A DNA stretch of 22,677 bases. Origin: an uncultured delta proteobacterium (GTDB lineage: Bacteria > Desulfobacterota > Binatia > UBA9968). Location: positions 1 to 22,677 of the forward strand of contig CAWJZV010000037.1 in NCBI GenBank assembly GCA_963847445.1, given 5' to 3'. Below, piece after piece: positions 72 to 21,144 of the stretch. Positions within the stretch are counted from its first letter, which is position 1. Each line of letters starts with the position of its first letter. The position numbers and the translations under genes were made by a program. A model generated the notes under the pieces. It was given only the letters and a program-made list of their open reading frames with translations. It searched no databases and had not been told where the DNA came from.

Positions 72-335
72 TGTCATTTCGACTGGAAGGAGAAATTATC
101 CGATTCCGAATTCCCCGCCGTCATTCCCGCGCACGCGGGAATCCAGGTTTATTCCCGTGAATCGAAGATGGATTCCCGTTGTCACGGGAATGACGGAATG
201 AGGCTGCGGCGCGATGCGGGATTTGGTGCGAAGAGAGAAGTGCAGGTTGCGAAGGATACGATGGATTCACCAAGAAGAGCACGTAGGATGGAATAATTTT
301 CCGAACTTCGTGCTCTTAGTGTCCTTCGTGGCGAA
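72..335. repeat. Cluster of short palindromic intergenic repeats (GTCATTTCGAC half unit, GTCATTCCC inverted doublet, TTCACCA-GAAG/CTTCGTGG unit)
   Basis: 118-196 has perfect inverted ends CCGTCATTCCCG...CGGGAATGACGG and two ATTCCC-N8-GGGAAT hairpins. 119-150 is identical over 32 bp to 11167-11198. 266-335 is a TTCACCAAGAAG...CTTCGTGGCGAA unit related to 20897-20937. Confidence 0.9.
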
Positions 336-1895: not shown

Positions 1896-2389
1896 CACCA
1901 CGAAGGACCTAGCGCGGCGAAGCCGCAACCAAAAGGGAAAGACCTTTTCACCACGAAGTGCTTCATGGGCTTACGCTCGTCTACTGATCATGAAAATACC
2001 GGAAGCCCTCTCCCGAGGGTTCATTCCTTAGACTCGTCATGCCGGCGCAGGCCGGCATCCAGGGGCGCGAGGGGGGATGGATACCGGCCTGCGCCGGTAT
2101 GACGGAACAGAGAGTCGTTATCGATATGCATATCATCCCCTCACATGAATTTTCGAAGGAGGACACGAAGATCACGAAGGTTGGAGTTCAAATTATCCGA
2201 ATTATCCGAACCCTTCGTACTACTATCCGTGATAGTTTGCGCGGCTTGCGCAAATTTCTCGATGCGCCAAAGCCAAGAGGGCGGGTTTCAAACCCGCCCC
2301 TACGACTCCCGATATTTTTGGCGCTCTTTGCGTTCTTTGCGGGAATTATTCTGTTCGGTTGCGGCGCAGCGCGCGTGATCTTCGTGGTG
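1896..2389. repeat. Nested composite palindromic element (copy A)
   Basis: Terminal inverted repeats CACCACGAAG/CTTCGTGGTG. Second layer GCGCGGCGAAGCCGCAACC (1912-1930) / GGTTGCGGCGCAGCGCGC (2357-2374). Inner GTCAT...ATGAC doublet 2035-2104. GTAG-type REP hairpin 2279-2303. The last ~150 bp resemble 11321-11468 and 19753-19903. Confidence 0.88.
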
Positions 2390-2502
2390 CCCACGAACTT
2401 GGCTTTTTTGCAGCAGGCGAAAAGCTTTTCAAGCTCGCTCTAAGCCTTGATTGTTGTTGAATATTGTTTGTGTTAGCTTCGATAAATTCGGAAAGGGCAA
2501 CC

Positions 2503-3459
2503 ATGTTTCAATCTGTTGACGAAGTGATCGCCGGGCTGGCTACGCAGAAGTATCTGTGCAACAAGAACGTCGCTACCGTGGTCTATCTGGGCACGTCGCT
2601 GCAAAAACCGCTGTTGGTTGAAGGCCCAGCGGGGGTAGGGAAGACCGAACTGGGCAAGGTGTTGGCGGACTCTCTCGGCATGGAGCTGATTCGCCTCCAG
2701 TGCTACGAAGGGCTCGACGAGGCTAAAGCTCTGTACGAATGGGAGTACGCCAAGCAACTGCTCTACACCCAAATCTTGAAAGACAAGATCGGCGAGATCC
2801 TGGAGGGCGCCAAAACCTTACAGGAAGCGGTCGACCATGTCGCTAACCAGGATGGCGTGTTTTACTCCGATCGCTTTCTCCTGCCGCGGCCATTGCTGCG
2901 CGCGGTCTTGTCGGAAAAGCCGGTGGTCCTGTTGATCGACGAGATCGATAAGTCGGACGCCGAGTTCGAGGCCTTTTTGCTCGAAGTGTTGAGCGACTTT
3001 CAAATCACGGTGCCGGAGATCGGCACGCTCAAGGCCAAGCATATTCCGCTGGTGGTGCTGACCAGCAACAACAGCCGGGAAGTGTCCGACGCGCTCAAGC
3101 GCCGCTGTCTGCATTTATTTCTCGACTTCCCCGATCCTGAGCGTGAAAAAGAGATCATCAAGCTCAAGGTGCCCAATGTCGGCGACAAGCTCGCCGATGA
3201 AGTAGTGCGCTTGCTGCACCGCCTGCGCAAGCTCGATTTAAAGAAGACACCGAGCATCAGCGAGAGCCTGGACTGGGTGCGCGCTTTGACGTTGCTCAAT
3301 ATCAAAGACCTCGACAACGAACTGGTCGAGCAGACCATGTCGGCGCTGATGAAGTATGAAGCCGACATCCGCAAGGCACACCAGGAACTCAAGAGTTATC
3401 TAGCTGAGAAGCAAGCCCGGCGTCCCGACGCCAGCAACGATAAGGATCATCTGCATTAG
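2503..3459 (+). CDS. MoxR family AAA+ ATPase (CoxD-like)
   Basis: Walker A EGPAGVGKT, LIRLQCYEG, ALYEWEY, Walker B LLIDEIDK, TSNNSRE, SDALKRRC. ATG 2503 is preceded by GAAAGGG. Confidence 0.95.
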   Translation: MFQSVDEVIAGLATQKYLCNKNVATVVYLGTSLQKPLLVEGPAGVGKTELGKVLADSLGMELIRLQCYEGLDEAKALYEWEYAKQLLYTQILKDKIGEILEGAKTLQEAVDHVANQDGVFYSDRFLLPRPLLRAVLSEKPVVLLIDEIDKSDAEFEAFLLEVLSDFQITVPEIGTLKAKHIPLVVLTSNNSREVSDALKRRCLHLFLDFPDPEREKEIIKLKVPNVGDKLADEVVRLLHRLRKLDLKKTPSISESLDWVRALTLLNIKDLDNELVEQTMSALMKYEADIRKAHQELKSYLAEKQARRPDASNDKDHLH

Positions 3460-3487: not shown

Positions 3488-4894
3488 ATGCAAGCGCGGG
3501 TTATCGAGTTCGCCAATGTTTTACGCCGCAACGGCATCCGGGTGTCGTTGTCGGAAAACATGGACGCGTTCCGCGCGCTGGAACTGATCGGCATCGCCGA
3601 CCCGCAAATGTTTCGCAATGCCTTGCGCACCACTCTGATCAAGCGCACCAGCGATCAGAAACCCTTCGATGAACTTTTCGATTATTTTTTCTTGGGCATC
3701 GGCCAGGCCCTCGATGCCATTGACCGCAAGATCATGGAAGAGCTCGGGCTATCGCCGGAAAAGTTTCAGGAGATGCTCGAGCAGATCCAGAAACTCATGA
3801 AGGAGATGGAAGGGGATCTAGCCGATCTCACCAAGGCGCTGCTCAACAATAACCGCGCCGAGCTTGAGCGGTTGCTGCGCCAAGCGATGCAGCAGGAGGC
3901 TCAGGACGGCACGCCGGACAGCCTGCGCCACACGCCCTACACGCGCATGATGATGCGCCTGGGGCTCGACCGGGTGCAGAGCGAGATCGAGCGCTTCCGC
4001 GGCATGCTGCAAATGCTCGGCGAGAACGGCGAGGATCTGCAAAACGTCATGCGCTATTTAGACGAGCGCATGCGCGACTTGAACCGGCTGTTGCGCGAAG
4101 TGATCCAGCAGGAGCAGCGCAAACAGGGCGCTGAACCGCGCGATTACTCCCAGCGCAGCGCGCTGGCGGACAAGAGTTTTTCTTTTTACACCGAAGACGA
4201 TATCCGGCGCATGAACGACGCCGTGGCGCGCCTGGCGCAGCGCTTGAAAAACCGCCTATCGGTGCGGCGCAAAAGAGCCGCCCGTGGCCGCTTCGACGTC
4301 AAAGCGACCTTGCGTAAAAACATGCAATACGGCGGCGTGCCGTTTCTGATTCAACTCGACCGGCGCAAAAAGACCAAGCCGCAGGTGATGGTGCTGTGCG
4401 ATATTTCCGACTCGGTGTTGAACGCCTCGCGTTTCATGCTGCAGTTCGTCTATTCCATCCAGGATCTCTACGCCAAGGTGCGCAGCTTTGTCTTCGTCGC
4501 CGAGATCGGCGAGGTCACCAAGCTCTTCGAAGAACATGACATCCAGACTGCCGTCGAGACCGCTTTGAAAGGGGATGTCATCGACGTTTTCTCCCATTCG
4601 AATTTCGGCCGCGCCTTCGAGCAGTTTCACCGCAACTTTTTCGCCTCGATCACCAGCAAGACCACCGTCTTGGTGATCGGCGACGGGCGCAACAATTACA
4701 ACCGTCCCAACGAATGGGTGCTGCGCGAAGTCAAGCAAAAGGCCAAACAGTTGATCTGGCTCAACCCGGAAAGCCGCATGACCTGGGGCATCGGAGACAG
4801 CGAGATGCCGCGCTACGCGCCCCATTGCCATATCGCCGAGGAGTGCCGCAGCATCAATCAACTTTATAAAATCGTCGATTTGATCGTGCCCTAA
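3488..4894 (+). CDS. VWA domain protein, CoxE-like
   Basis: N-terminal FANVLRRNG, MIDAS DISDS, SNFG, IGDGRNN, WLNPE...WGIGDSEM; lies directly downstream of the MoxR ATPase. Confidence 0.93.
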   Translation: MQARVIEFANVLRRNGIRVSLSENMDAFRALELIGIADPQMFRNALRTTLIKRTSDQKPFDELFDYFFLGIGQALDAIDRKIMEELGLSPEKFQEMLEQIQKLMKEMEGDLADLTKALLNNNRAELERLLRQAMQQEAQDGTPDSLRHTPYTRMMMRLGLDRVQSEIERFRGMLQMLGENGEDLQNVMRYLDERMRDLNRLLREVIQQEQRKQGAEPRDYSQRSALADKSFSFYTEDDIRRMNDAVARLAQRLKNRLSVRRKRAARGRFDVKATLRKNMQYGGVPFLIQLDRRKKTKPQVMVLCDISDSVLNASRFMLQFVYSIQDLYAKVRSFVFVAEIGEVTKLFEEHDIQTAVETALKGDVIDVFSHSNFGRAFEQFHRNFFASITSKTTVLVIGDGRNNYNRPNEWVLREVKQKAKQLIWLNPESRMTWGIGDSEMPRYAPHCHIAEECRSINQLYKIVDLIVP

Positions 4895-4898
4895 GGTT

Positions 4899-6264
4899 AT
4901 GCCGAAAAAGCTTTTTATCCAGACCTACGGCTGCCAGATGAACCAATACGATTCGGAAAAAATCGCCCAGGTCCTGGCGCGCCAAGACTATGTCCGAACC
5001 GATCGTATCGATGGCGCGGATGTGATCCTGCTCAACACTTGCAGCGTGCGCGACAAGGCCGAACAAAAAGTTTACAGCGCGCTCGGCAGCTGGAAGGAAT
5101 TCAAAAACTACCGCGACGGCGTCATCATCGGCGTCGGCGGTTGCGTAGCCCAACAGGAAGGCGAAAATCTCTTAAAGCGCATCCCCCATTTAGATTTGGT
5201 TTTCGGCACCCACAATATTCATAAACTGCCGGAGATGATCGAGCAGGTTGAAATCAGCCGGGCACGCCCGGTGGAGACCGCTTTTTACCGGGATCCGGCT
5301 TACATGGACGATAGCGAACTGCGGACGCAAGTCGACGGCGTCAAGGCTTTTGTGACGATCATGCAAGGCTGTAATAAAGTGTGCAGCTTCTGTATCGTGC
5401 CCCATGTGCGCGGCCGCGAGGTGAGCCGGCCCAGCGCAAAAATTCTCGCCGAAATAGAATCTCTGGCGCGCCACGGCGTCAAGGAAGTCATGCTGCTCGG
5501 CCAAAATGTCAATTCCTACGGCAAACTCACACCTGGCGAGCTGAGCTTTGCCGAGTCTGCTCGCCCAGGTCGACCAGATCGATGGCTTGCGGCGCATTCG
5601 CTTTACCACTTCCCACCCGCAAGATTTGTCGCCCGAGCTGATCGAGGATTTCGCCACGTTGGCAAAATTTATGCGAGCACCTGCATTTGCCGGTGCAGTC
5701 GGGTTCGGACACGGTCCTGGCGCGCATGCGCCGCGGTTATACCAAGGCGGAGTATTCTGGCCCGGCTCAATCGTCTGCGCGATCGTTGTCCGAAAGTGGC
5801 GCTGAGCACCGACATCATTGTCGGCTTTCCCGGCGAAACCGATGGCGAATTCGCCGAGACGCTAGAATTACTCCGCGCGGTGGAGTACGATGATATTTAC
5901 TCGTTCACCTATTCGCCGCGGCCGCAAACCGTCTCCGCGAAAATTTATCCCGACGATGTTCATGACGACGTGAAAAAAGAGCGTTTAAGAATCGGTGCAA
6001 AAATTGCAGCGCGAAATATCTTTGGCGAAAAACCGCCAACGCATCGGCGACCGTGAAGAGGTTCTGGTCGAGGGAGCGGCGAAACTAAAAGCCGAACAAA
6101 TCATGGGCCGCACCCGCGCCAACCGTATCGTCAACCTCACCGGTTCTACCAGTTTGATCGGTGAGTTCGTGCAAGTTCGGATTATCGGCGCTACCGCCAA
6201 CTGATTGCTCGGCGAGTTGATGTGCGCTAATGCTGCGATTAGAGTCCCAGCAAAAAGAGGTTAG
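4899..6264 (+). CDS. miaB: tRNA-2-methylthio-N6-dimethylallyladenosine synthase MiaB (four frameshifts and one in-frame TGA in this sequence)
   Basis: TYGCQMN, LNTCSVR, GCVAQ, radical-SAM [52 protein letters not shown] and a C-terminal TRAM domain. These motifs are spread over frames by +1 shifts near 5556, 5668, 5756 and 5994. TGA 6202-6204 interrupts ATAN-x-LLGEL, and that frame ends at TAG 6262-6264. Confidence 0.93.
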
Positions 6265-6870: not shown

Positions 6871-7565
6871 ATGGCCACAACCCAAACTAGAAGAATCAGC
6901 CGTAAAGAACTGCGCCAGCCTGATCGCTTTCAAGTCGCCACTGAGAAGGCGCTGGAATATATCCAATCCCACAAGAATTTAGTCTTCGCTGCGATCGGCG
7001 TGTTAGTGCTGTTCGGTCTGGCAATCTGGGCTGGCAGCTATTTAAGGAAAGGCAAAATGACGCGGCGGCGCTGGAGTTCACCGATGCCACGGCGCTTTAT
7101 CAAGCCGAGAAGTACCGCGAGGCGCTGACAGCCTTCGAAAAGGTTCAATCCTATCGCTGGTCGCGTTACGCCGGCTTGGCCCATCTTTATCAAGCCAATA
7201 CCCATATTGCGTTGGGCGAACTCGACAAGGCGCTGAGTTCGGGTCAACGCGCGGTTACAGCGAGCCGGCCCAACACGCTGTATCGCCAACTAGCTCTGAT
7301 GACCTTGGCCAACGCCGCGGAGCAAAAGAACGACTGTCGCCAAGCTATCGATTCTTACGACGAAGCGCGGAAAATTGTCGCAGCTCAGCAAGACGAAGCT
7401 TTACTCGGTAAAGCACGTTGCCTGGAAAAGACCGGCGATGCAGCCGGCGCCTTGGCAGCCTACAAGGAATATGTAAAAGACCAGCCGGGTTCGATTGCGA
7501 GTGCCAAAGTCGTCGAGCTTGAGGGCAAAGTTTCGACAGCTCCGGTGACACCGGCGGCGAAATAA
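6871..7565 (+). CDS. Membrane-anchored TPR protein (YfgM-like), one frameshift near 7030
   Basis: ISRKELRQPDRF basic N-terminus, one hydrophobic segment, then helical TPR-like repeats that continue in the 7176..7565 frame. Confidence 0.78.
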
Positions 7566-7578
7566 TGAAACATATTTA

Positions 7579-7606
7579 ATGTCTGATAAGATATATTATG
7601 TCAACT
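7579..7606 (+). other. dif site (XerC/XerD chromosome dimer resolution site)
   Basis: ATGTCTGATAA-GATATA-TTATGTCAACT has the 11-6-11 layout of E. coli dif (GGTGCGCATAA-TGTATA-TTATGTTAAAT). The XerD arm matches 9/11. It is intergenic between convergent genes. Confidence 0.88.
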
Positions 7607-7714
7607 TTGATCATCTGCGTTAATTCGGATTTTTGACTGGTCCTATGGCACAGCGCCCTGCACTTCCAAGGCACTTTAATCCCATCCCCACTGAACTCTG
7701 CATCGACCACCGCC

Positions 7715-8709
7715 TCATCGCTTTGCTAACTGATCGATAAAGCCACTGTCGTCGAGTTTTTTCAGTATCGAATGGTTGATCACCATGTCGGGTTTGATCT
7801 TGGCCACTAACGGATCGGATTCGGCGATGAATTCGATCATCGATACAATGCCGGCGCTGTCGACATAAGGTTTTGGCGGCAGCACTTTGAGCGCCGATTG
7901 ATAATGCTCCTCAGCCTTCTCGACTCGATCCGAGTCTTAAATACTTGGCGATGACTTGCTTGACCCGCTCCTTGTTCCGCGGATCGAGACTGAAACTGTT
8001 ACCGGCGACGATGCCCTTTAGCGCCCGCTCGACAAACTCTGGGTCATTCTTGATTGTCCGCTCACGAATGCACATGGTTTGCTGTGGATAGGGAATCGGC
8101 AGCTCGGTGAAATCGGCCAGGATCGAATTACCACGTTCCTTCAGCACGCGGCCCGAGACCGGGATTGACGATGATCGCGTCGCTGCCACCCGACTGCAAC
8201 GAACCGACCCGCGCGGCTTGATTGCCCAATTGAAGAATCGTGATGCGGTCGCGCCGGGCATCGAGGCCCCAATGCTTCAAACCAAGTAACACGGCGTGAT
8301 AGGACGCCGTGCCGGCTTGCGCCGCGCCGATCCGCCTGCCTTTGAGATCTTCGGGTTTCTTGATCGCCGCTGACGTTACCAAGATGTAATTCATCTTATT
8401 GACCATGCCGGCAAACATGGTCAGATCGGCGCCGCGTGCCCGCGCGCTAATCACCGGCTGGCCCGACATGCCCATGATCGGTATGTCTCCCGAAATCAAC
8501 GCTTGGGCACCGCGTGTGCCCCCTTCGATCAAAATCAAATCCGGGTCGCTGCCGTAACGTTTAAACAGCCCCTCTTCTTTAGCAACCCAAAGCGGCGTTT
8601 GATTGGAACTGAAGGAGGAATAACCAAGCAGAAATTTATTCTGCGCCAACCCTAGGGCCTGATAAAGGAGTACGCAGGTGCCAAAAATGAGACCGGATAT
8701 TCGCTTCAT
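7715..8709 (-). CDS. ABC transporter substrate-binding protein, NitT/TauT (NMT1-like) family, two frameshifts (~8147, ~7932)
   Basis: Signal peptide, PLWVAKEEGLFK, ALISGDI, DLKGRRIG. Continues as KERGNSILADF and then as KPYVDSAGI...LDDSGFIDQLAKR, with the stop at 7715-7717. Confidence 0.85.
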
Positions 8710-11096: not shown

Positions 11097-11469
11097 TTCA
11101 GCGCGAAGTGTCCATGAGCTCGCGCTCGCCTACGAGCATGAAAATGGCTCTGCTCCCTCCTTGATTCGTCATTCCCGCGCACGCGGGAATCCAGGTTTGG
11201 TCAGCACCGAATTAGCCTGGATACCCGCTTTCGCGGGTATGACGGAACACCGGAGGCTCTTCGTTGTACATCTCATCCTCTCACAAGTATTTTCGAAGGA
11301 TCTGACGCAGGACACGAAGCGCGACTGCGCAAATGTTCCGATCGCCGAATACCAGAGGGCGGGTTTCAAAGCCGCCCCTACGAATCCCGATTTTTTTGCG
11401 CCCTTTGCGTTCTTTGCGGCCATTCTGCGTTTTGGTTGCGGCTTCGCCGCGCTAGGTTCTTCGTGGTGA
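11097..11469. repeat. Nested composite palindromic element (copy B)
   Basis: CGAAGTGTCCATG...CATGAAAAT module (cf. 1954-1997), GTCATTCCC doublet 11167-11245, ATTTTCGAAGGA closer (cf. 2135-2160), REP hairpin GGGCGGGTTTCAAAGCCGCCCCTAC, GGTTGCGGCTTCGCCGCGC, CTTCGTGGTG end. Confidence 0.88.
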
Positions 11470-11479
11470 GGATTCCGGT

Positions 11480-12475
11480 TTACGGATTGCGGCCCCATAA
11501 TTTCACGAAGAATCCTTCATCGACCAGCTCTTGCACCAAACTGTTGTCGTAGAACTGCGCCGGCTTAGCCCCCTTTGCCTTGGCATTGGTCCGGCCGATC
11601 TCATCGAGAGTTACCTGGAATCCAGCAGCTTTAACGAACGGGACCTTTTCCATAAACTCGTAGCCATATTTCAAGCTGCCGTCGAGGATTCTTGGATCAG
11701 TGACCTTGGTGTATTTAGCGAATATCGTCTTCGTCTCGGCCGGTCTGTTGTAAATGAAATGCATCGCCTTGCCGTAGGCGCGCAAAAAAGCTTTCGCCGC
11801 TGGCCGCCTTTCTTTGACGAAGCGTTTGGTGGTCGTCAGAGTCAAGTGAACGAAGGGAATCTCATCCTTGGCGAGATTGGCCAGCACCTTTGCCCCTCCC
11901 TGTTCAGCGACATAGACCATCGGATAAGACATTGGCGCCGCCGCGATAATCTTCTTGGACAGCGCCGCGGCGATCTCGGGCATGCCGCCGATTTGAATGA
12001 ACGCTACATCCTTATGAGCTTCGAGCCCATGCTTGGCCAGAAACATGCGCATACCGAAGTCAGTGGCTGCGCCAAAACGCGAGACACCGATAGTTTTGCC
12101 TTTGAGGTCGGCGACGGTTTTTATCTCAGGCGCGGCCATAACATAGAAAGGCACGATATTCACCGTCGCCCCGATCGCCACCAAGTCGCCGCCTTGGAGC
12201 CCCGAGTCCGCAATCACCTGGCTATTTTGCGCGCTAATAACCACATCACCGGCCAGCGTCGCTTTCGCCGCCACCGGCGAGCTGGCGATATACATGGTAT
12301 CGACGTCCAAACCTTCTTCTTTGTAGAATCCTGCGTCGTTCATGATCCAAAACGGCGCATTGAACGCGCTCACCGCAGTCCAGGCAATGACCAGCTTTTG
12401 CGCCTGGGCCGGCACGATGCCGAGAGCGAGCAGCAGAAGTACGATCGCGACGCCAGCACGAACGCGATTCTCCAT
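11480..12475 (-). CDS. ABC transporter substrate-binding protein, NitT/TauT family
   Basis: Signal peptide ending AQA, LAGDV, DLKGKTIGVSRFG, FYDNSLVQELVDEGF. Start 12475 overlaps the upstream stop (TGATG). Confidence 0.92.
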   Translation of the reverse strand: MENRVRAGVAIVLLLLALGIVPAQAQKLVIAWTAVSAFNAPFWIMNDAGFYKEEGLDVDTMYIASSPVAAKATLAGDVVISAQNSQVIADSGLQGGDLVAIGATVNIVPFYVMAAPEIKTVADLKGKTIGVSRFGAATDFGMRMFLAKHGLEAHKDVAFIQIGGMPEIAAALSKKIIAAAPMSYPMVYVAEQGGAKVLANLAKDEIPFVHLTLTTTKRFVKERRPAAKAFLRAYGKAMHFIYNRPAETKTIFAKYTKVTDPRILDGSLKYGYEFMEKVPFVKAAGFQVTLDEIGRTNAKAKGAKPAQFYDNSLVQELVDEGFFVKLWGRNP

Positions 12476-13464
12476 CACGGCGCCCTCCCCCACAGTTTAA
12501 CGAAGAAACCTTCGTCGATCAGTTCCTGCACCAGGCTGTTATCGTAGAACTGTTCCGGCTTGGCGCTCTTCGCTTTGGGATTTTTTTTGGCGATGTCGTC
12601 GAGCGTGACCTGGAAAGCGGCGGCTTTTACCAGCGGCACTTTTTCGATGAAGTCGTAAGCGTACGTCAGACTGCCATCGACCATGCCTTGATCTTTGATC
12701 TTGGTGTATTTGCTAATGATCGCTTTGCTGTCTTCCTTTTTCGAATGCATGAAGTGGACGGCGCGGCCGTAGGCGCGCAGATAAGCTTTAGCCTGGGCGC
12801 GCCGTTCGCGCATGAACTTGCGCGTCGTGGTCACGCCGACATGGAGAAACGGAATGTTTTCCTTCGCCAGATTCGCCAACAGATGCGCCCCGCCCTGCTG
12901 GGCGACGTAGGCCATGGGTTGGGAAAATGCCGCGGCATGCACCGTACGCTTGCCCATCGCCGCGGCGATCTCGGGCAGCCCGCCGAGTTGAATCATCGGC
13001 ACATCCTTCACCGGCTCCAAGCCGTATTTAGTTAAAAACATGCGCATGCCGACATCGCCGGAAGAGCCGAAGCGGGTCACGCCGACGGTTTTCCCCTTGA
13101 GATCGGCGATGGTTTTTATTTCCGGCGTCGCCATGATGTAGAACGCCACGACATTGGTGATGCCGCCCATCGCCACTAGATCGCCGCCTTGCAGGCCGAC
13201 ATCGGCGACCACTTGGCCGTTGGCGGGTGAGATCATCACCTCGCCGGCAAGCGTCGCCTGGGCCACGGTCGACGAACTGGGAATGTAGACCAGCTCGGTG
13301 TCGAGCCCTTCTTGCTTGGCGAATCCGGCGTCTTGGATAATCCAGAAGGTCGCGTTGAGCGCGCTAATCGATGAGTATGCTTGCACGAACTTTTGCGCCT
13401 GTGCCGCGGCGGGCAAGAGCAGCAAGGCGAGAGCGAGTAAAGATTTTGCCAGTTGATTGGTCAT
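12475..13464 (-). CDS. ABC transporter substrate-binding protein, NitT/TauT family (close tandem paralogue of 11480-12475)
   Basis: Signal peptide ending AQA. Shares long segments with its neighbour (GLQGGDLVA, PEIKT, LANLAK, FYDNSLVQEL, FFVKLWGR). Confidence 0.93.
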   Translation of the reverse strand: MTNQLAKSLLALALLLLPAAAQAQKFVQAYSSISALNATFWIIQDAGFAKQEGLDTELVYIPSSSTVAQATLAGEVMISPANGQVVADVGLQGGDLVAMGGITNVVAFYIMATPEIKTIADLKGKTVGVTRFGSSGDVGMRMFLTKYGLEPVKDVPMIQLGGLPEIAAAMGKRTVHAAAFSQPMAYVAQQGGAHLLANLAKENIPFLHVGVTTTRKFMRERRAQAKAYLRAYGRAVHFMHSKKEDSKAIISKYTKIKDQGMVDGSLTYAYDFIEKVPLVKAAAFQVTLDDIAKKNPKAKSAKPEQFYDNSLVQELIDEGFFVKLWGRAP

Positions 13465-15285: not shown

Positions 15286-15367
15286 CCGCCGACGAGATCC
15301 TCGAGTTTTACGTTTTATAAATCTAGGAGATCTTCGAAATCCCTGGTTTTCCAGAAAAACGCGGCTT

Positions 15368-15457
15368 CGTCTTGCCGGCTCAGGCCGGCAGCCACCTTCC
15401 TTGTTAGTCGAAGCCAATTTAACAAAGCCTGGATACCGGCTTTCGCCGGTATGACGG
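15368..15457. repeat. GTCAT-type inverted palindrome doublet
   Basis: CGTCTTGCCGGCTCAGGCCGGCAGCCA...TGGATACCGGCTTTCGCCGGTATGACG; same family as 2035-2104. Confidence 0.85.
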
Positions 15458-15519
15458 AAGAGGCAGTCGAGTATCAGCCGACGAACTCGCGAATACTTGG
15501 CCCGGCTTAGTGTCCAGAT

Positions 15520-15984
15520 CTATCCACCGATCAACCCCGCTTGCCGCAGCACGCCGGCATGGTCCCAATAGATCCGCTCGCAAGCGAGCTTGTCGCCGCG
15601 AAATTGCACGATCACGACAAAGTCCACGGCGATCTTTCTGTGAGTTGCTGGAACACCGGGCAAAAACCAAGGCATGGGATTGCTATGGGTAATTTCGACA
15701 TGGAGCTCGTCGACTAAATGCCCGGCGCCGATTACACGGTTTACCGGGGTTATCCGCATATCGTCCGGCCAGGACGGAATAAAGTCGTCGCGATAAAATT
15801 TGCGCAGCGCATCCTTGCCGCGTCCGCCGGTGTTTACCGGCATATGGTTGACCTAAGCGTCGTCGACCATGGTTGCCAGTGTAGCCTCGACATCGCGAGT
15901 CTCGAACTCGCCGCGCAAATGCTCGGCCCAGAGTTGCTCGAGTTGTTCGGCACTGAGCGCCGATCGGTAATCATGCTCTGCCAT
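15520..15984 (-). pseudogene. SnoaL-like / ester cyclase (NTF2-fold) protein with an in-frame TAG (nonsense mutation or base error)
   Basis: Reads MAEHDY...LWAEHLRGEFETRDVEATLATMVDDA*VNHMPVNTGG...FY...ERIYWD. The TAG at 15853-15855 falls where homologues, as I recall them, have Tyr (DAYVNH). Confidence 0.75.
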
Positions 15985-19311: not shown

Positions 19312-19365
19312 CTGAATATATTCCTTCCGAACTTTGTCGTCATCGAAACAACCAGATCCCATCAA

Positions 19366-19903
19366 ACCACGAAGCTCACGAGGGGTTTGGCAAAGGGCGC
19401 AGCGTGCTGCGCCCCTACAACTTTGTGCTACAACTTTGTGCTCTTCGTATTGCTATCCAAAAACTAACACCACCATGTTTGTCATATCGTGCGACTTTAA
19501 TATTCCGGGAGTCGAAGATTTTCGGATTCGGAAATTCCTCTCGCCAAGGCGCAAAGACGCCAAGTTCGAAGAGAAAACAATAGTACTCTTACAAACGGTC
19601 ATCATCACTATTTTATTTTCCGAGCTTTGCGAGCTTAGCGACTTTGCGAGAGATATTCCGAGTTTCGATTGCGGCTGTTCGCCTACAGGCGCACCTCTTT
19701 TCCCCCAGCGAAGTCTGGGGAAAAGCGTGTATTACCATGCCTCGAAGTTTACGCGGCTTGCGCAAATTGCCCGAGCGCCAAATCCAAGAGGGCGCCTTTC
19801 AAACCACGCCCCAACCAATCCCGATTCTTTTTTGCGTCCCTTGCGTTCTTTGCGGCCAATCTTCAATTCGGTTGCGGCAGAGCCGCGCCAGGTCCTTCGT
19901 GGT
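19366..19903. repeat. Nested composite palindromic element (copy C)
   Basis: Inverted ends ACCACGAAG/CTTCGTGGT. REP hairpin GGGCGCAGCGTGCTGCGCCCCTAC. CTCTCGCCAAGGCGCAAAG...CTTTGCGAGAG pair (~19538-19652). Hairpin ~19698-19725. ~150-bp tail shared with copies A and B. Confidence 0.86.
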
Positions 19904-19935: not shown

Positions 19936-21144
19936 CTATTCGTACAGACTCTTGATGAACCCGCTATCTTCGATGGACTTGAGGATAGTCGGATCGCTGA
20001 ACGATGCCGGGTCGGCAGATTTAGCTTTGGGAAACTCCTTGGCGATGGAGTCGAGCACCGTGCGTATGCCGCTCACGGAAGGATACGGCACGCGGTCGAA
20101 ATAGGTGTTGGCATACTGGTCGTAGGTGCGCTCGGCGTATTTCTCCTTGTCCGCCTCCATGCGCATTTTCTTCAGGATGATGCGGATGCTTTCCTTCTTG
20201 TTGCGCTTGAAATAGGCAATCCCTTCGACGTAGGCGCGCATCACTCGAGTCGCCTGATCACGGTTGCCGCGCAGGTAGCCGCGCGTCGACACCAGCATGC
20301 TTTGCAAATAGTGAATGTTCATCTTGGCGAGATCGGCTAAGACGCGGAAGCCATTGTCTTCGGCGATGAAATAGGACGGGTCGGTCAGCACCGCGCCGTC
20401 GACGACTTTCTTTTGCAAGCTCACCAGCATGGTCGGCGACGAACCGATCTGCAAGACGTTCAAATCCTCCTGGCGCAGGTTCCAATGATTGAGCAAGAGG
20501 GTCAGAACCGTATGGGATGCGGTGCCAAAGGCGGTAATGGCGATGCGCTTGCCTTTTAGGGCCTCTGGCGTATCGACATCCGGCCGCACCAGTAGCCGAT
20601 GCACGCCTTTGTTGTTGAGCGCGGCGATCATCGTCACATCGCTGCCTTTTAGCATGGAGCTAATCACCGGCCCGCCGCTGGCGCTGGCGAACTGGATATC
20701 GCCCGCCAATAAGGCGTTAATGCCACGTGCCGCCCCACCGCCGATAAAGATCGCCTCGACGTCGAGACCATGCTTTTTGAAAAAACCGCGTTCCTCGGCC
20801 ACCCATATGGCGCTATTGCTCGGGCTAAAAGCGCCCATGCCGATGCGAATCTTGTCCATCGCTTGGGCGTATTCTGGCGGGCTGATGAAGAACGCATTCA
20901 CCAAGAAGGACACGAAGAGCACGAAGGTCGGAAAATTACTTGACCGAAAACTTCGTGCTCGGGGCCTATGGTGAGCGTAGGTTTGTAGGATGTGGTGACC
21001 AAAGGGAACCGCATCGTTGGTAAGTCGCATTCGTTCGATGCGGTTCGCGGACTCACCACATCCTACGGGTTTCGCCATTTTGATTTTCCGCAGGTGTGCG
21101 TAATCACATGAAACACTTCGTGGTGAAAATGAATTTGTCATCAT
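19936..21144 (-). CDS. ABC transporter substrate-binding protein, NitT/TauT family; 5' end overlaps a repeat element, start codon uncertain
   Basis: Mature part AQA-MDKIRIG, IWVAEERGFFKKHGLDVE, ALLAGDIQF, LKGKRIAIT, PYPSVSGI, IEDSGFI. The frame is open back to ATG 21144, 6 bp after the upstream stop. Confidence 0.88.
   Translation of the reverse strand: MMTNSFSPRSVSCDYAHLRKIKMAKPVGCGESANRIERMRLTNDAVPFGHHILQTYAHHRPRARSFRSSNFPTFVLFVSFLVNAFFISPPEYAQAMDKIRIGMGAFSPSNSAIWVAEERGFFKKHGLDVEAIFIGGGAARGINALLAGDIQFASASGGPVISSMLKGSDVTMIAALNNKGVHRLLVRPDVDTPEALKGKRIAITAFGTASHTVLTLLLNHWNLRQEDLNVLQIGSSPTMLVSLQKKVVDGAVLTDPSYFIAEDNGFRVLADLAKMNIHYLQSMLVSTRGYLRGNRDQATRVMRAYVEGIAYFKRNKKESIRIILKKMRMEADKEKYAERTYDQYANTYFDRVPYPSVSGIRTVLDSIAKEFPKAKSADPASFSDPTILKSIEDSGFIKSLYE
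20897..21127. repeat. Nested composite palindromic element (copy D) inside the 5' end of the CDS
   Basis: Inverted ends TTCACCAAGAAG/CTTCGTGGTGAA. Inner GTAG-REP inverted pair GTAGGATGTGGTGA...TCACCACATCCTAC (20985-21066). 20897-20937 matches intergenic 295-335 at 37/41 nt as the reverse complement. Confidence 0.88.

Follow-up and report, generated by a model that had tools for sequence, protein, structure and literature searches.

How do intergenic gaps come to be filled with hairpins nested inside other hairpins? We examined this question in contig CAWJZV010000037.1 from an uncultured Binatia bacterium, hereafter the window (the whole contig, also called C37, 22,677 bases), which belongs to a 48-contig metagenome bin of 7.19 Mb (assembly G000; completeness 91.8%, contamination 6.9%). 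Four gaps between genes of the window (A, 1896-2389; B, 11097-11469; C, 19366-19903; D, 20897-21127) had been described in an earlier note as members of a family of nested palindromic elements in which several non-autonomous elements target one another at fixed positions. We found that the four gaps are mosaics of repeat modules that occur throughout the genome in ~20 to 200 copies apiece. On balance, the gaps are probably stacks of small non-coding hairpins from five or more families, built by repeated site-specific insertion of these families into one another.

Ten modules were seeded from the window and searched across the genome with iterated nhmmer, and copy numbers are given as non-overlapping matches. 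The search yielded 175 matches for a hairpin denoted W, 82 and 62 for the left and right ends of a carrier denoted M2 (M2L and M2R), 203 for GTCAT doublets (112 REPa and 91 REPb), 20 for a GTAG pair, and 150, 98, 67, and 203 for the modules G, S, H, and Ccore, respectively. BLAST depth along each gap against the genome varied in steps, between a few copies and ~160. The sequence features that had been described by eye were present at the positions given for them, and a count of 15-mers flagged 1896-2389 as one repeat-dense interval with identical coordinates. The inner units were also found alone in the window, at 118-198, 267-336, and 15366-15459.

The W hairpin is typically 78-80 nt long and has three CACGAAG words per arm; 85 simple copies were identified by pattern. 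Its first word is the decamer CACCACGAAG, which occurs 303 times in the assembly, compared with ~17 occurrences expected from base composition. The letters following these 303 sites were another word in 156 cases, M2 in 44, and S in 34, with more M2 recognized by eye among the 69 remaining sites. The W hairpin is a landing pad in many intergenic regions. Other hairpin families of the same three-word design were found genome-wide, with the seeds GTTCAAG (~125), CGCAAAG (~110), ACTCCAT (~88), and GGAACG (~39), and also CGCCAAG.

The inverted words that bound the gaps were located at 1896 and 1949 (CACCACGAAG), at 2380, 11459, and 21116 (CTTCGTGGTG), at 19366 (ACCACGAAG), and at 19895 (CTTCGTGGT), and copy B has a degenerate left end (AGCGCGAAG, 11100-11108). 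The earlier note had taken these words for the termini of an outer element. This part of the description did not stand, as the words instead lie outermost in a W hairpin that was already in place: in a related genome (G003) the orthologous locus A is a bare W. The 39-nt "end" at 1896-1934 had 56 BLAST matches, with just one plus/minus pair within 6 kb. Because it is almost never paired, it represents a polar module, S, and not one of two ends. In aligned copies of this 39-nt sequence, S was joined to several different neighbors.

M2 begins with TG..CATG...GAAAAT and ends with ..TATTTTCGAAGGAG. In the window its left end lies directly 3' of CGAAG in copies A (1959), B (11109), and D (21115, minus strand), as had been noted. 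Genome-wide, M2L was preceded by an exact CACGAAG in 67 out of 81 copies, and by this word with at most one mismatch in 75. Downstream of the 62 right ends (...TATTTTCGAAGGAG), a word followed in 36 cases and S in 3. As M2 ends in ...CGAAGGAG, each insertion creates a fresh target, which explains tandem and nested stacks; one tandem M2-M2 arrangement was observed (C18:8978/9187). No conserved fold of the M2 left end was found in the consensus of the 82 copies.

We then considered what M2 carries. In a hand count of the sequences after 82 M2L copies, a GTCAT dimer followed by M2R was found in 58, a GTAG dimer in 10, GTCAT without an M2R match in 8, and neither in 6. Conversely, 53 of 91 GTCAT dimers defined by a regular expression lie inside M2, and 10 of 20 GTAG matches lie inside an M2 scaffold beside a W hairpin. 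Within the window the cargo is twice a GTCAT doublet, at 2033-2107 in A and at 11165-11247 in B, and once a GTAG pair, at 20983-21066 in D, and composites A and B both close with ATTTTCGAAGGA. One M2 carrier thus holds repeats of two unrelated described systems, Ssn-type or RAYT-type. The offset of the REP core from the start of M2 ranged from 53 to 149 nt. The proposal that modules are inserted into one another at fixed positions therefore holds for insertion after the CGAAG/CAAAG word, but not for the REP core inside M2, whose position is not fixed to the nucleotide. As a separate observation, in one M2 (C11:108-848, L241) a group II intron without an open reading frame (ORF), with the 5' sequence GTGCG, lies directly after the first NTS-type hairpin (Rfam Intron_gpII, 55.6 bits, gathering score 40; group-II-D1D4-3, 31.9 bits).

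Recurrent neighbor orders indicated that there are two types of carriers, M2 (left end, core, right end) and a second, S...H. The S...H element has an S hairpin, GCGGCnnnGCCGC, at one end and an H hairpin, TTTGCGC...GCGCAAA, at the other, with variable hairpin cargo between them; the subterminal hairpins are unlike each other and there is no terminal inverted repeat. The neighbors of S (n = 98) were Ccore in 35 cases, G in 32, M2L in 11, W in 9, S in 5, GTAG in 2, and no known module in 4. The order S-G-H was recurrent, with G ~11 nt and H ~97 nt from S, and H followed G or Ccore at a set distance. A CTTYRYR word follows 60 of the 98 S copies. G consists of the hairpin GGGCGGGTTTCAAACCCGCCC and CGCAAAG words, and its 150 copies include those at 2262-2342, 11343-11419, and 19775-19855.

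Direct evidence on how the modules came together was provided by filled and empty alleles. Two close relatives are co-assembled in the bin: window positions 1-22671 match C1:10718-32376 colinearly over ~20 kb with ~95.6% identity, and further duplicate contig pairs were identified (C14/C34, C29/C8, C14/C39, and C40/C45). Comparison of filled and empty loci gave four pairs in which M2 or S...H is present or absent directly after a CGAAG/CAAAG word. At locus C, the C1 allele contains M2 (TGTCCATG...TTTTCTAAGGAG) between ACCACGAAG and CTCACG, and in the window ACCACGAAG is joined directly to CTCACG, so that the words are adjacent. At C8:132310-132498, M2 (TGTCCGTG...TGTAAGAG) stands between accacgaag and gacgaagagcacgaag; in the empty allele (C29:3932), ctacgaag is followed immediately by gacgaagagcacgaag. 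Both alleles retain the atypical second word GACGAAG, so that only M2 differs between them. The third pair concerns a 209-nt H-W-S unit, located at C14:138389-138599 and missing from C39:11080; read on the other strand, it follows ACCACAAAG. At locus A, G003, whose flanks are 93-98% alike, has a bare W, and the C1 allele has an S-Ccore-H unit between words 1 and 2. All four pairs lacked a target duplication, and in three of them the word in question opens a W arm. The inference that several non-autonomous modules occur independently and nest at a fixed position was thus borne out by these four pairs together with the 75 of 81 M2L copies beside the word.

Several observations weigh against repeated insertion. 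The informative allele pairs number only four, and all are from metagenome bins. The S...H event at C14/C39 is not letter-perfect, as the GT of the empty allele is replaced. No mobilizing gene was found for W, M2, or S...H in the assembly, which is 91.8% complete, and M2, S, and H were at the ends of none of 33 Y1_Tnp loci (29 fetched from the genus and 4 from this assembly). The orientation of M2 showed no significant bias relative to local GC skew (34 vs 43, Fisher p = 0.35), and a mechanism acting on single-stranded DNA of the lagging strand would predict a bias. Finally, gaps A, B, and C are wholly different between the C37 and C1 alleles while their outer words are kept; the match between the two contigs consists of six colinear blocks, and the breaks between blocks include these three gaps. 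Such wholesale differences mean that turnover did not proceed by simple insertion alone.

These differences at 95.6% identity, with the same outer words, are what would be expected if the mosaics were assembled by homologous or microhomology recombination and gene conversion, with the words serving as homology and no dedicated insertion taking place. The hundreds of near-identical words and the lack of a detected enzyme also fit this explanation, as does one contig from sequencing run X1, which joins 19348 to 19900 through 37 other letters in place of 19349-19899 and so lacks the 551-nt composite; this variant may have lost the W hairpin as well. (Contigs of four runs were aligned to the window; most joints fell in repeats belonging to other loci or organisms and were set aside, and uncovered parts carry no meaning.) However, the alleles of the C8/C29 pair share both the second word and the loop and differ in M2 only, and to the left of the insert just ~10-12 nt are homologous. 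Of 81 copies, 67 have a junction identical to the nucleotide, and M2 and S...H, in contrast to the words, each possess conserved ends. We therefore consider recombination rather unlikely as the sole origin of the mosaics. Recombination and deletion among words must nevertheless contribute to turnover. Conservation between C37 and C1 extends to copy D and to the solo units at 118-336.

The GTCAT doublets resemble a family of hairpins described in other bacteria. In Di Nocera et al. 2013 (PMC3733652), CGTC-tagged REPs have stems that begin with AT, have CCA tails, and occur mostly as head-to-head dimers. Chenal et al. 2025 (PMC11893778) define NTS as CGTCATTCCCGCGMAVGCGGGAATCYRG and describe SsnA, a single-domain GIY-YIG protein of 94 amino acids that binds NTS as single-stranded DNA and cuts a few nucleotides upstream; the architecture NTS-ssnA-NTS is reported there across phyla. 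The NTS/SRM hairpins correspond to the CGTC-1 REPs, or dRS3, in Di Nocera et al. 2013 (PMC3733652). We identified 38 exact matches to the NTS definition in the assembly, two of them in the window (119-146 and 11167-11194), and 614 GTCAT-tagged hairpins by a looser rule.

In addition, two GIY-YIG genes flanked by GTCAT hairpins were found, at C24:23815-24126 (103 amino acids) and C13:5514-5750 (78 amino acids), with GIY-YIG Pfam scores of 52.8 and 57.6 bits; in NCBIfam they had just a weak match to a group I intron endonuclease. A broken GIY-YIG gene at C1:5499 is flanked by a GTCATTTCGA variant. Among 28 homologous GIY-YIG loci in relatives, hairpins flanked both sides of 13 and one side of 5, and were not detected at the other 10, as counted with a detector that demanded perfect stems and after exclusion of two loci from the unpublished genome G005; the 10 loci without hairpins were mostly distant homologs. 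By its sequence, the GTCAT doublet fits membership in the NTS/SRM (CGTC-1 REP) family, and its probable partner is an Ssn-like GIY-YIG gene elsewhere in the genome. The CGTC tag, the AT-first stem, the CCA tail, the mostly head-to-head dimers, and the flanked GIY-YIG genes of 78-103 amino acids are all shared with the NTS/SRM-Ssn system. There are also differences: the dimers here lie mostly within another element, M2, and the organism is an uncultured environmental bacterium and not a symbiont. Elsewhere in the assembly, genes resembling DUF559 nucleases at C3:25002-25325 and C30:568617-568934 are bracketed by hairpins of their own, of the CCTCCCTTTnCAAAAGGGAGG type and the CCCTCGCC...GGCGAGGG type.

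The GTAG unit of copy D belongs with a different enzyme. On contig C39, a RAYT gene (607-1149) has GTAG REP pairs on both sides (~500-607 and 1151-1269), and its protein matches the NCBIfam model REP_Tyr_transpos with 190.6 bits (cut-off 80). The copy D unit matches the REPs flanking this gene, with 35 invariant alignment columns. Judged by this match, the GTAG pair of copy D is a REPIN whose predicted RAYT lies on contig C39. As in other REPIN-RAYT systems of the GTAG REP superfamily, it is a GTAG-tagged inverted dimer whose unit is the same as in the REPs flanking the RAYT. Two features differ, namely that half of the GTAG dimers here are in the M2 scaffold and that there are just ~20 non-overlapping copies.

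REP dimers within longer palindromes have precedent. According to Di Nocera et al. 2013 (PMC3733652), longer palindromes enclose GTAG-15 dimers in A. variabilis and all CGTC-1 dimers in H. neapolitanus, and the consensus of the H. neapolitanus host palindrome is given as ..GAAAaACC--..GGTaTTTCgAAGC... Compared by eye only, this consensus resembles the inner ends of M2 (GAAAATACC ... GTATTTTCGAAGG). A difference is that, in that study, the host palindrome was not found without REPs (PMC3733652). Moreover, M2 takes two unrelated types of REP and has in turn been inserted, at a defined word, into another hairpin.

Bacterial interspersed mosaic elements (BIMEs) provide a second comparison. In the composites of the window there is one REP dimer each, and there are no regular alternating REP arrays with fixed linkers. 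The BIMEs of E. coli consist of REP arrays in alternating orientation with a small set of fixed linker motifs. The other modules here are independent families, and their order reflects nesting at the word. Like BIMEs and the Neisseria intergenic mosaics, which Di Nocera et al. 2013 mention (PMC3733652), the gaps are intergenic mosaics of REP-type hairpins and other short repeat motifs. The hierarchy had been claimed to be more elaborate than that of standard BIMEs; the nesting is indeed richer and occurs at a specific word, but, with REP dimers in palindromes already reported, the difference is one of degree only.

We propose the following course of events. A W hairpin of ~78 nt with three CACGAAG words per arm serves as the landing pad. 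M2 and S...H lie directly after CGAAG/CAAAG, on either strand of W and without duplication, and the center of M2 holds a REP dimer, either NTS/SRM (CGTC-1) or a GTAG REPIN; we regard these three steps as shown by the copies and alleles above. The fourth step is suggested by the anatomy of the elements. Insertion would take place as single-stranded DNA, by "peel and paste" as in IS200/IS605, with cleavage 3' of a short target, and some trans-acting enzyme would perform the insertion of M2 and S...H. Recombination between similar words would reshuffle and delete parts, so that alleles 95.6% alike carry different stacks. IS200/IS605 elements insert 3' of a short specific target without target duplication and have unlike subterminal hairpins. 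Their gene-less derivatives share with M2 and S...H the insertion directly 3' of a short word, the lack of duplication, and the lack of terminal inverted repeats, and with S...H also the unlike hairpins at the two ends, which points to an IS200/IS605-like single-strand mechanism. Differing from that group, no TnpA/TnpB element with these ends was found in the assembly and M2 has no clear strand bias.

Which enzyme might act on the modules? None is encoded in the window, as the earlier note had said, and it had proposed a search for genes flanked by each module. This search succeeded for the GTAG (RAYT) and GTCAT (GIY-YIG) repeats, but not for W, M2, or S...H. The assembly contains four Y1_Tnp matches, one IS110, two of the IS91 type, and zero TnpB, and among these only the RAYT is flanked by modules. 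No module was found at the ends of the single IS110, of an IS91-plus-integrase unit (C30:196782-198652), or of the Y1 genes with a helix-turn-helix (HTH) on C2 and C7. In a relative, G015, which has 32 Y1 matches, we found a multi-copy Y1_Tnp unit of 1.02 kb that encodes a ~320-amino-acid protein and has inverted ends of its own, GTCAGGCCTGAGTATTGA (at 2220-3249, 4330-5358, and 7369-8398 of locus L234, G015:C8:233500-244500); we take this protein to have a C-terminal HTH. Locus L051 of the unpublished genome G005 contains a truncated IS200-type fragment next to half a GTCAT hairpin; it was considered uninformative and excluded. No gene cassette framed by M2L...M2R or H...S 350-4000 nt apart was found; the pairs at this spacing (six M2L...M2R and four H...S) were neighboring composites or the intron-bearing copy. 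Similarly, at 80 S-bearing loci from other taxa there was no adjacent transposase and no ORF family that recurred in more than three loci.

These results also bear on the possibility that a single known insertion sequence left the composites behind, as its ends or remnants. The outer inverted words do resemble terminal inverted repeats. Nevertheless, each module occurs alone and in other combinations, target duplications are lacking, and neither a gene cassette between paired ends nor a transposase beside the 80 S loci was detected, which makes this origin very improbable. A classical MITE (a miniature transposable element with inverted repeats), derived from a DDE transposase element, was also considered and rejected, with no target duplication at the four events and with the ends of M2 and S...H unlike each other.

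Another explanation is that the modules are mainly signals selected by the host, such as terminators, mRNA stabilizers, or protein-binding sites, which spread slowly and whose order reflects function. Every module copy in the window is intergenic, and single-stranded composite A folds strongly (-112.7 kcal/mol, z = -7.97), with none of 100 shuffles equally good. REPs have often been proposed as RNA elements, according to Di Nocera et al. 2013 (PMC3733652). The orientation of G tracks local GC skew (104 vs 44, p = 2e-6) and that of S does so with a weak bias (p = 0.049), in a genome in which ORFs of at least 500 amino acids are biased (p = 7e-8), so that skew is informative; selection relative to transcription would explain the bias of G equally well. 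On the other side, presence and absence vary between near-identical alleles. Locus A differs among five other genomes: G003 has the bare W, a reversed M2 is present in G014 and a solo GTCAT dimer in G021, nothing recognizable was seen in G002, and G023 carries a hairpin with CACAGAG words. No Rfam family matched the window at its gathering score, and 1850-2420 gave just sub-threshold, chance-like matches. A host function would also be compatible with mobility. We find it improbable that selection by the host is the main explanation.

Contamination of 6.9% and duplicate regions in the bin raise the question of whether the pattern arose artificially, when mixed strains were assembled or binned. 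The modules matched in all 24 other genomes of the genus, in some of them in 10 to 40 contigs; one further family of the order had them in 9 of 11 genomes, and another in 1 of 5. (The genus tallies include the unpublished genome G005, and no specific claim depends on it.) The modules were also present in contigs of four independent runs, and the duplicates are colinear outside the gaps. An artefact is thus extremely improbable, and repeated site-specific insertion, supplemented by recombination among words, is the reading with which we describe the individual gaps.

Gap A begins with the first word of the ancestral W hairpin (CACCACGAAG, 1896-1905, plus strand), the landing pad that is bare in G003. 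A short S unit follows (1906-1948, plus strand; hairpin GCGGC-GAA-GCCGC), which reads in the "left end" direction, i.e. the minus strand of the S model; its nhmmer match at 1896-1934 is 97% complementary to 11430-11468. A second CACCACGAAG comes after the S unit, at 1949-1958. M2 copy A then spans 1959-2161 on the plus strand, with the left end TGCTTCATG...CATGAAAATACC, a core, and the right end CATGAATTTTCGAAGGAG (M2L match 1951-1997, M2R match 2120-2161). Its core contains the GTCAT doublet, a head-to-head, CGTC-tagged, NTS/SRM-like hairpin dimer (2033-2107, REPa match) whose arms, 2035-2061 and 2078-2104, are 93% complementary. Downstream lies a remnant of the W hairpin (2162-2218; Wcac match 2154-2218) with the words GACACGAAG and ATCACGAAG, a loop, and part of the right arm. 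An S...H element with G cargo occupies 2213-2379 on the minus strand (H 2213-2257, G 2262-2342, S ~2350-2379), and its S end abuts the last W word (CTTCGTGGTG, 2380-2389, plus strand).

Gap B starts with the degenerate first word AGCGCGAAG (11100-11108, plus strand), in place of which the C1 allele has TCACCACGG. M2 copy B spans 11109-11301 on the plus strand (M2L match 11104-11147, M2R match 11261-11300), with the GTCAT doublet as its core (REPb match 11165-11247); the left hairpin of this doublet, 11167-11194, is an exact fit to the published Neisseria NTS definition. A truncated S...H element follows on the minus strand (11320-11458; G 11343-11419, S hairpin 11430-11458) and coincides with the direct-repeat families D3 and D4. 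The last word, CTTCGTGGTG, is at 11459-11468 (plus strand).

Gap C has no M2, and only the outer words and the H-G-S part are in common with A and B. Its first and second words (ACCACGAAG and CTCACGAGG, 19366-19383, plus strand) form an empty M2 site, and the C1 allele has M2 exactly between them. Ccore (19522-19678, plus strand; match score 144.8) is a second word-hairpin with CGCCAAG/CGCAAAG words and is cargo of an S...H-type unit. An S...H element with G cargo (19729-19894, minus strand; H 19729-19769, G 19775-19855, S hairpin 19866-19894) leads up to the last word, CTTCGTGGT (19895-19903, plus strand).

Gap D contains a W hairpin on the minus strand (20897-20960; Wcac match 20896-20960) with one complete arm of three words. 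The first word of the other arm lies beyond the insert, at 21116-21125, and the hairpin is 90% complementary to the solo W at 294-335. The insert consists of the GTAG REP dimer, or REPIN (20983-21066, match score 83.3), as the core of an M2 variant, and of the M2 left end (21067-21115, minus strand; M2L match 21075-21123, minus strand), which is 74% complementary to 1938-2007. The right end is degenerate in this copy; other GTAG-type M2 copies keep ...TATTTTCGAAGGAG. The outer word CTTCGTGGTG at 21116-21125 (plus strand) is, on the minus strand, the first word, after which M2 follows.

Outside the gaps, the solo units comprise an NTS-type GTCAT hairpin dimer (118-198, in which 119-146 is an exact fit to the published NTS definition), a W hairpin with a degenerate left arm (267-336), and a degenerate GTCAT dimer (15366-15459). 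The last of these lies within a 655-nt stretch (15294-15948) that also contains a SnoaL-like ORF (15520-15843, minus strand); the C1 allele of this stretch has 89 nt only. The genes around the four gaps are ordinary metabolic genes, including TANGO2/AAA ATPase, ornithine cyclodeaminase-like, and NMT1-like binding-protein genes. Two tandem paralogous NMT1-like genes occupy 11480-13464, as direct repeats with 995-nt spacing and 71-75% identity. In other contigs we observed a separate element of ~116 nt, CCGGGCATTTCGCGATCGGGG...GGGGAATATTAGA, in at least 45 copies; at three loci one strain allele has it and the other lacks it (C14:260085-260214, C14:273140-273254, and C40:7973-8093).

We expanded the search for S beyond the order. 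A pattern scan for the S core AGCGCGGCnnnGCCGCAACC, with one genome per species, gave at least 124 stretches, often several per metagenome-assembled genome (MAG), and the matches listed were from MAGs labelled Binatia, Verrucomicrobiota, Planctomycetota, Terriglobia, "delta proteobacterium", Hydrogenedentota, and others. By a rough estimate, 17 fixed bases over ~1.2e12 positions would give tens of chance matches, so some of these matches are noise. In 80 fetched loci with 81 matches, the S core was followed by AA in 53. A C[AG]C-type heptamer word stood just upstream of the core in 40 of 81, compared with 155 of 2528 control positions, in a looser test; in a strict test for a word array beside S (the same 7-mer at least two more times within 200 nt), 9 of 81 matches were positive, compared with 1 control. 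The words beside S vary between records (CACAGAG, CGCCAAG, CACGGAG, CACGGAT, and others), and MAGs labelled Binatia share CACGAAG, which suggests that the organism of the window probably falls within Binatia. We tentatively suggest that the S core with its variable heptamer words could be a third, so far undescribed multi-phylum system of single-strand hairpin elements mobilized in trans, besides RAYT-REP and Ssn-NTS, in which three-word landing pads would let unrelated selfish elements pile up in harmless intergenic "dumps" and not in genes.

What is already known in these gaps is that two of the nested units are published families with known partner genes, and that the nesting of REP dimers has precedent. 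The three-word landing pad appears to be new, as do the two carriers, M2 and S...H, whose insertion follows a rule exact to the nucleotide. The same holds for the finding that Ssn-type and RAYT-type repeats share one carrier and for the presence of the S core under many phylum labels. The novelty of W, M2, and S...H rests on a limited literature search on GGTTGCGGC repeats, on Binatia repeats or transposases, and on GIY-YIG with REPs or MITEs, which returned nothing relevant. If the stacks were only products of recombination, they would be a well-documented but ordinary mosaic.

The partners of two hairpin families have been established, RAYT for the GTAG REPs and, in 2025, Ssn for the NTS/CGTC REPs. 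This genus provides natural filled and empty alleles that give the insertion sites of two further types of elements at the level of the nucleotide, and these alleles also show Ssn-type and RAYT-type repeats riding in one carrier. If it is true that the system of S and its words is widespread, it would offer a tractable route to a new enzyme acting on single-stranded DNA and would help to explain the intergenic "repeat dumps" in large environmental genomes.

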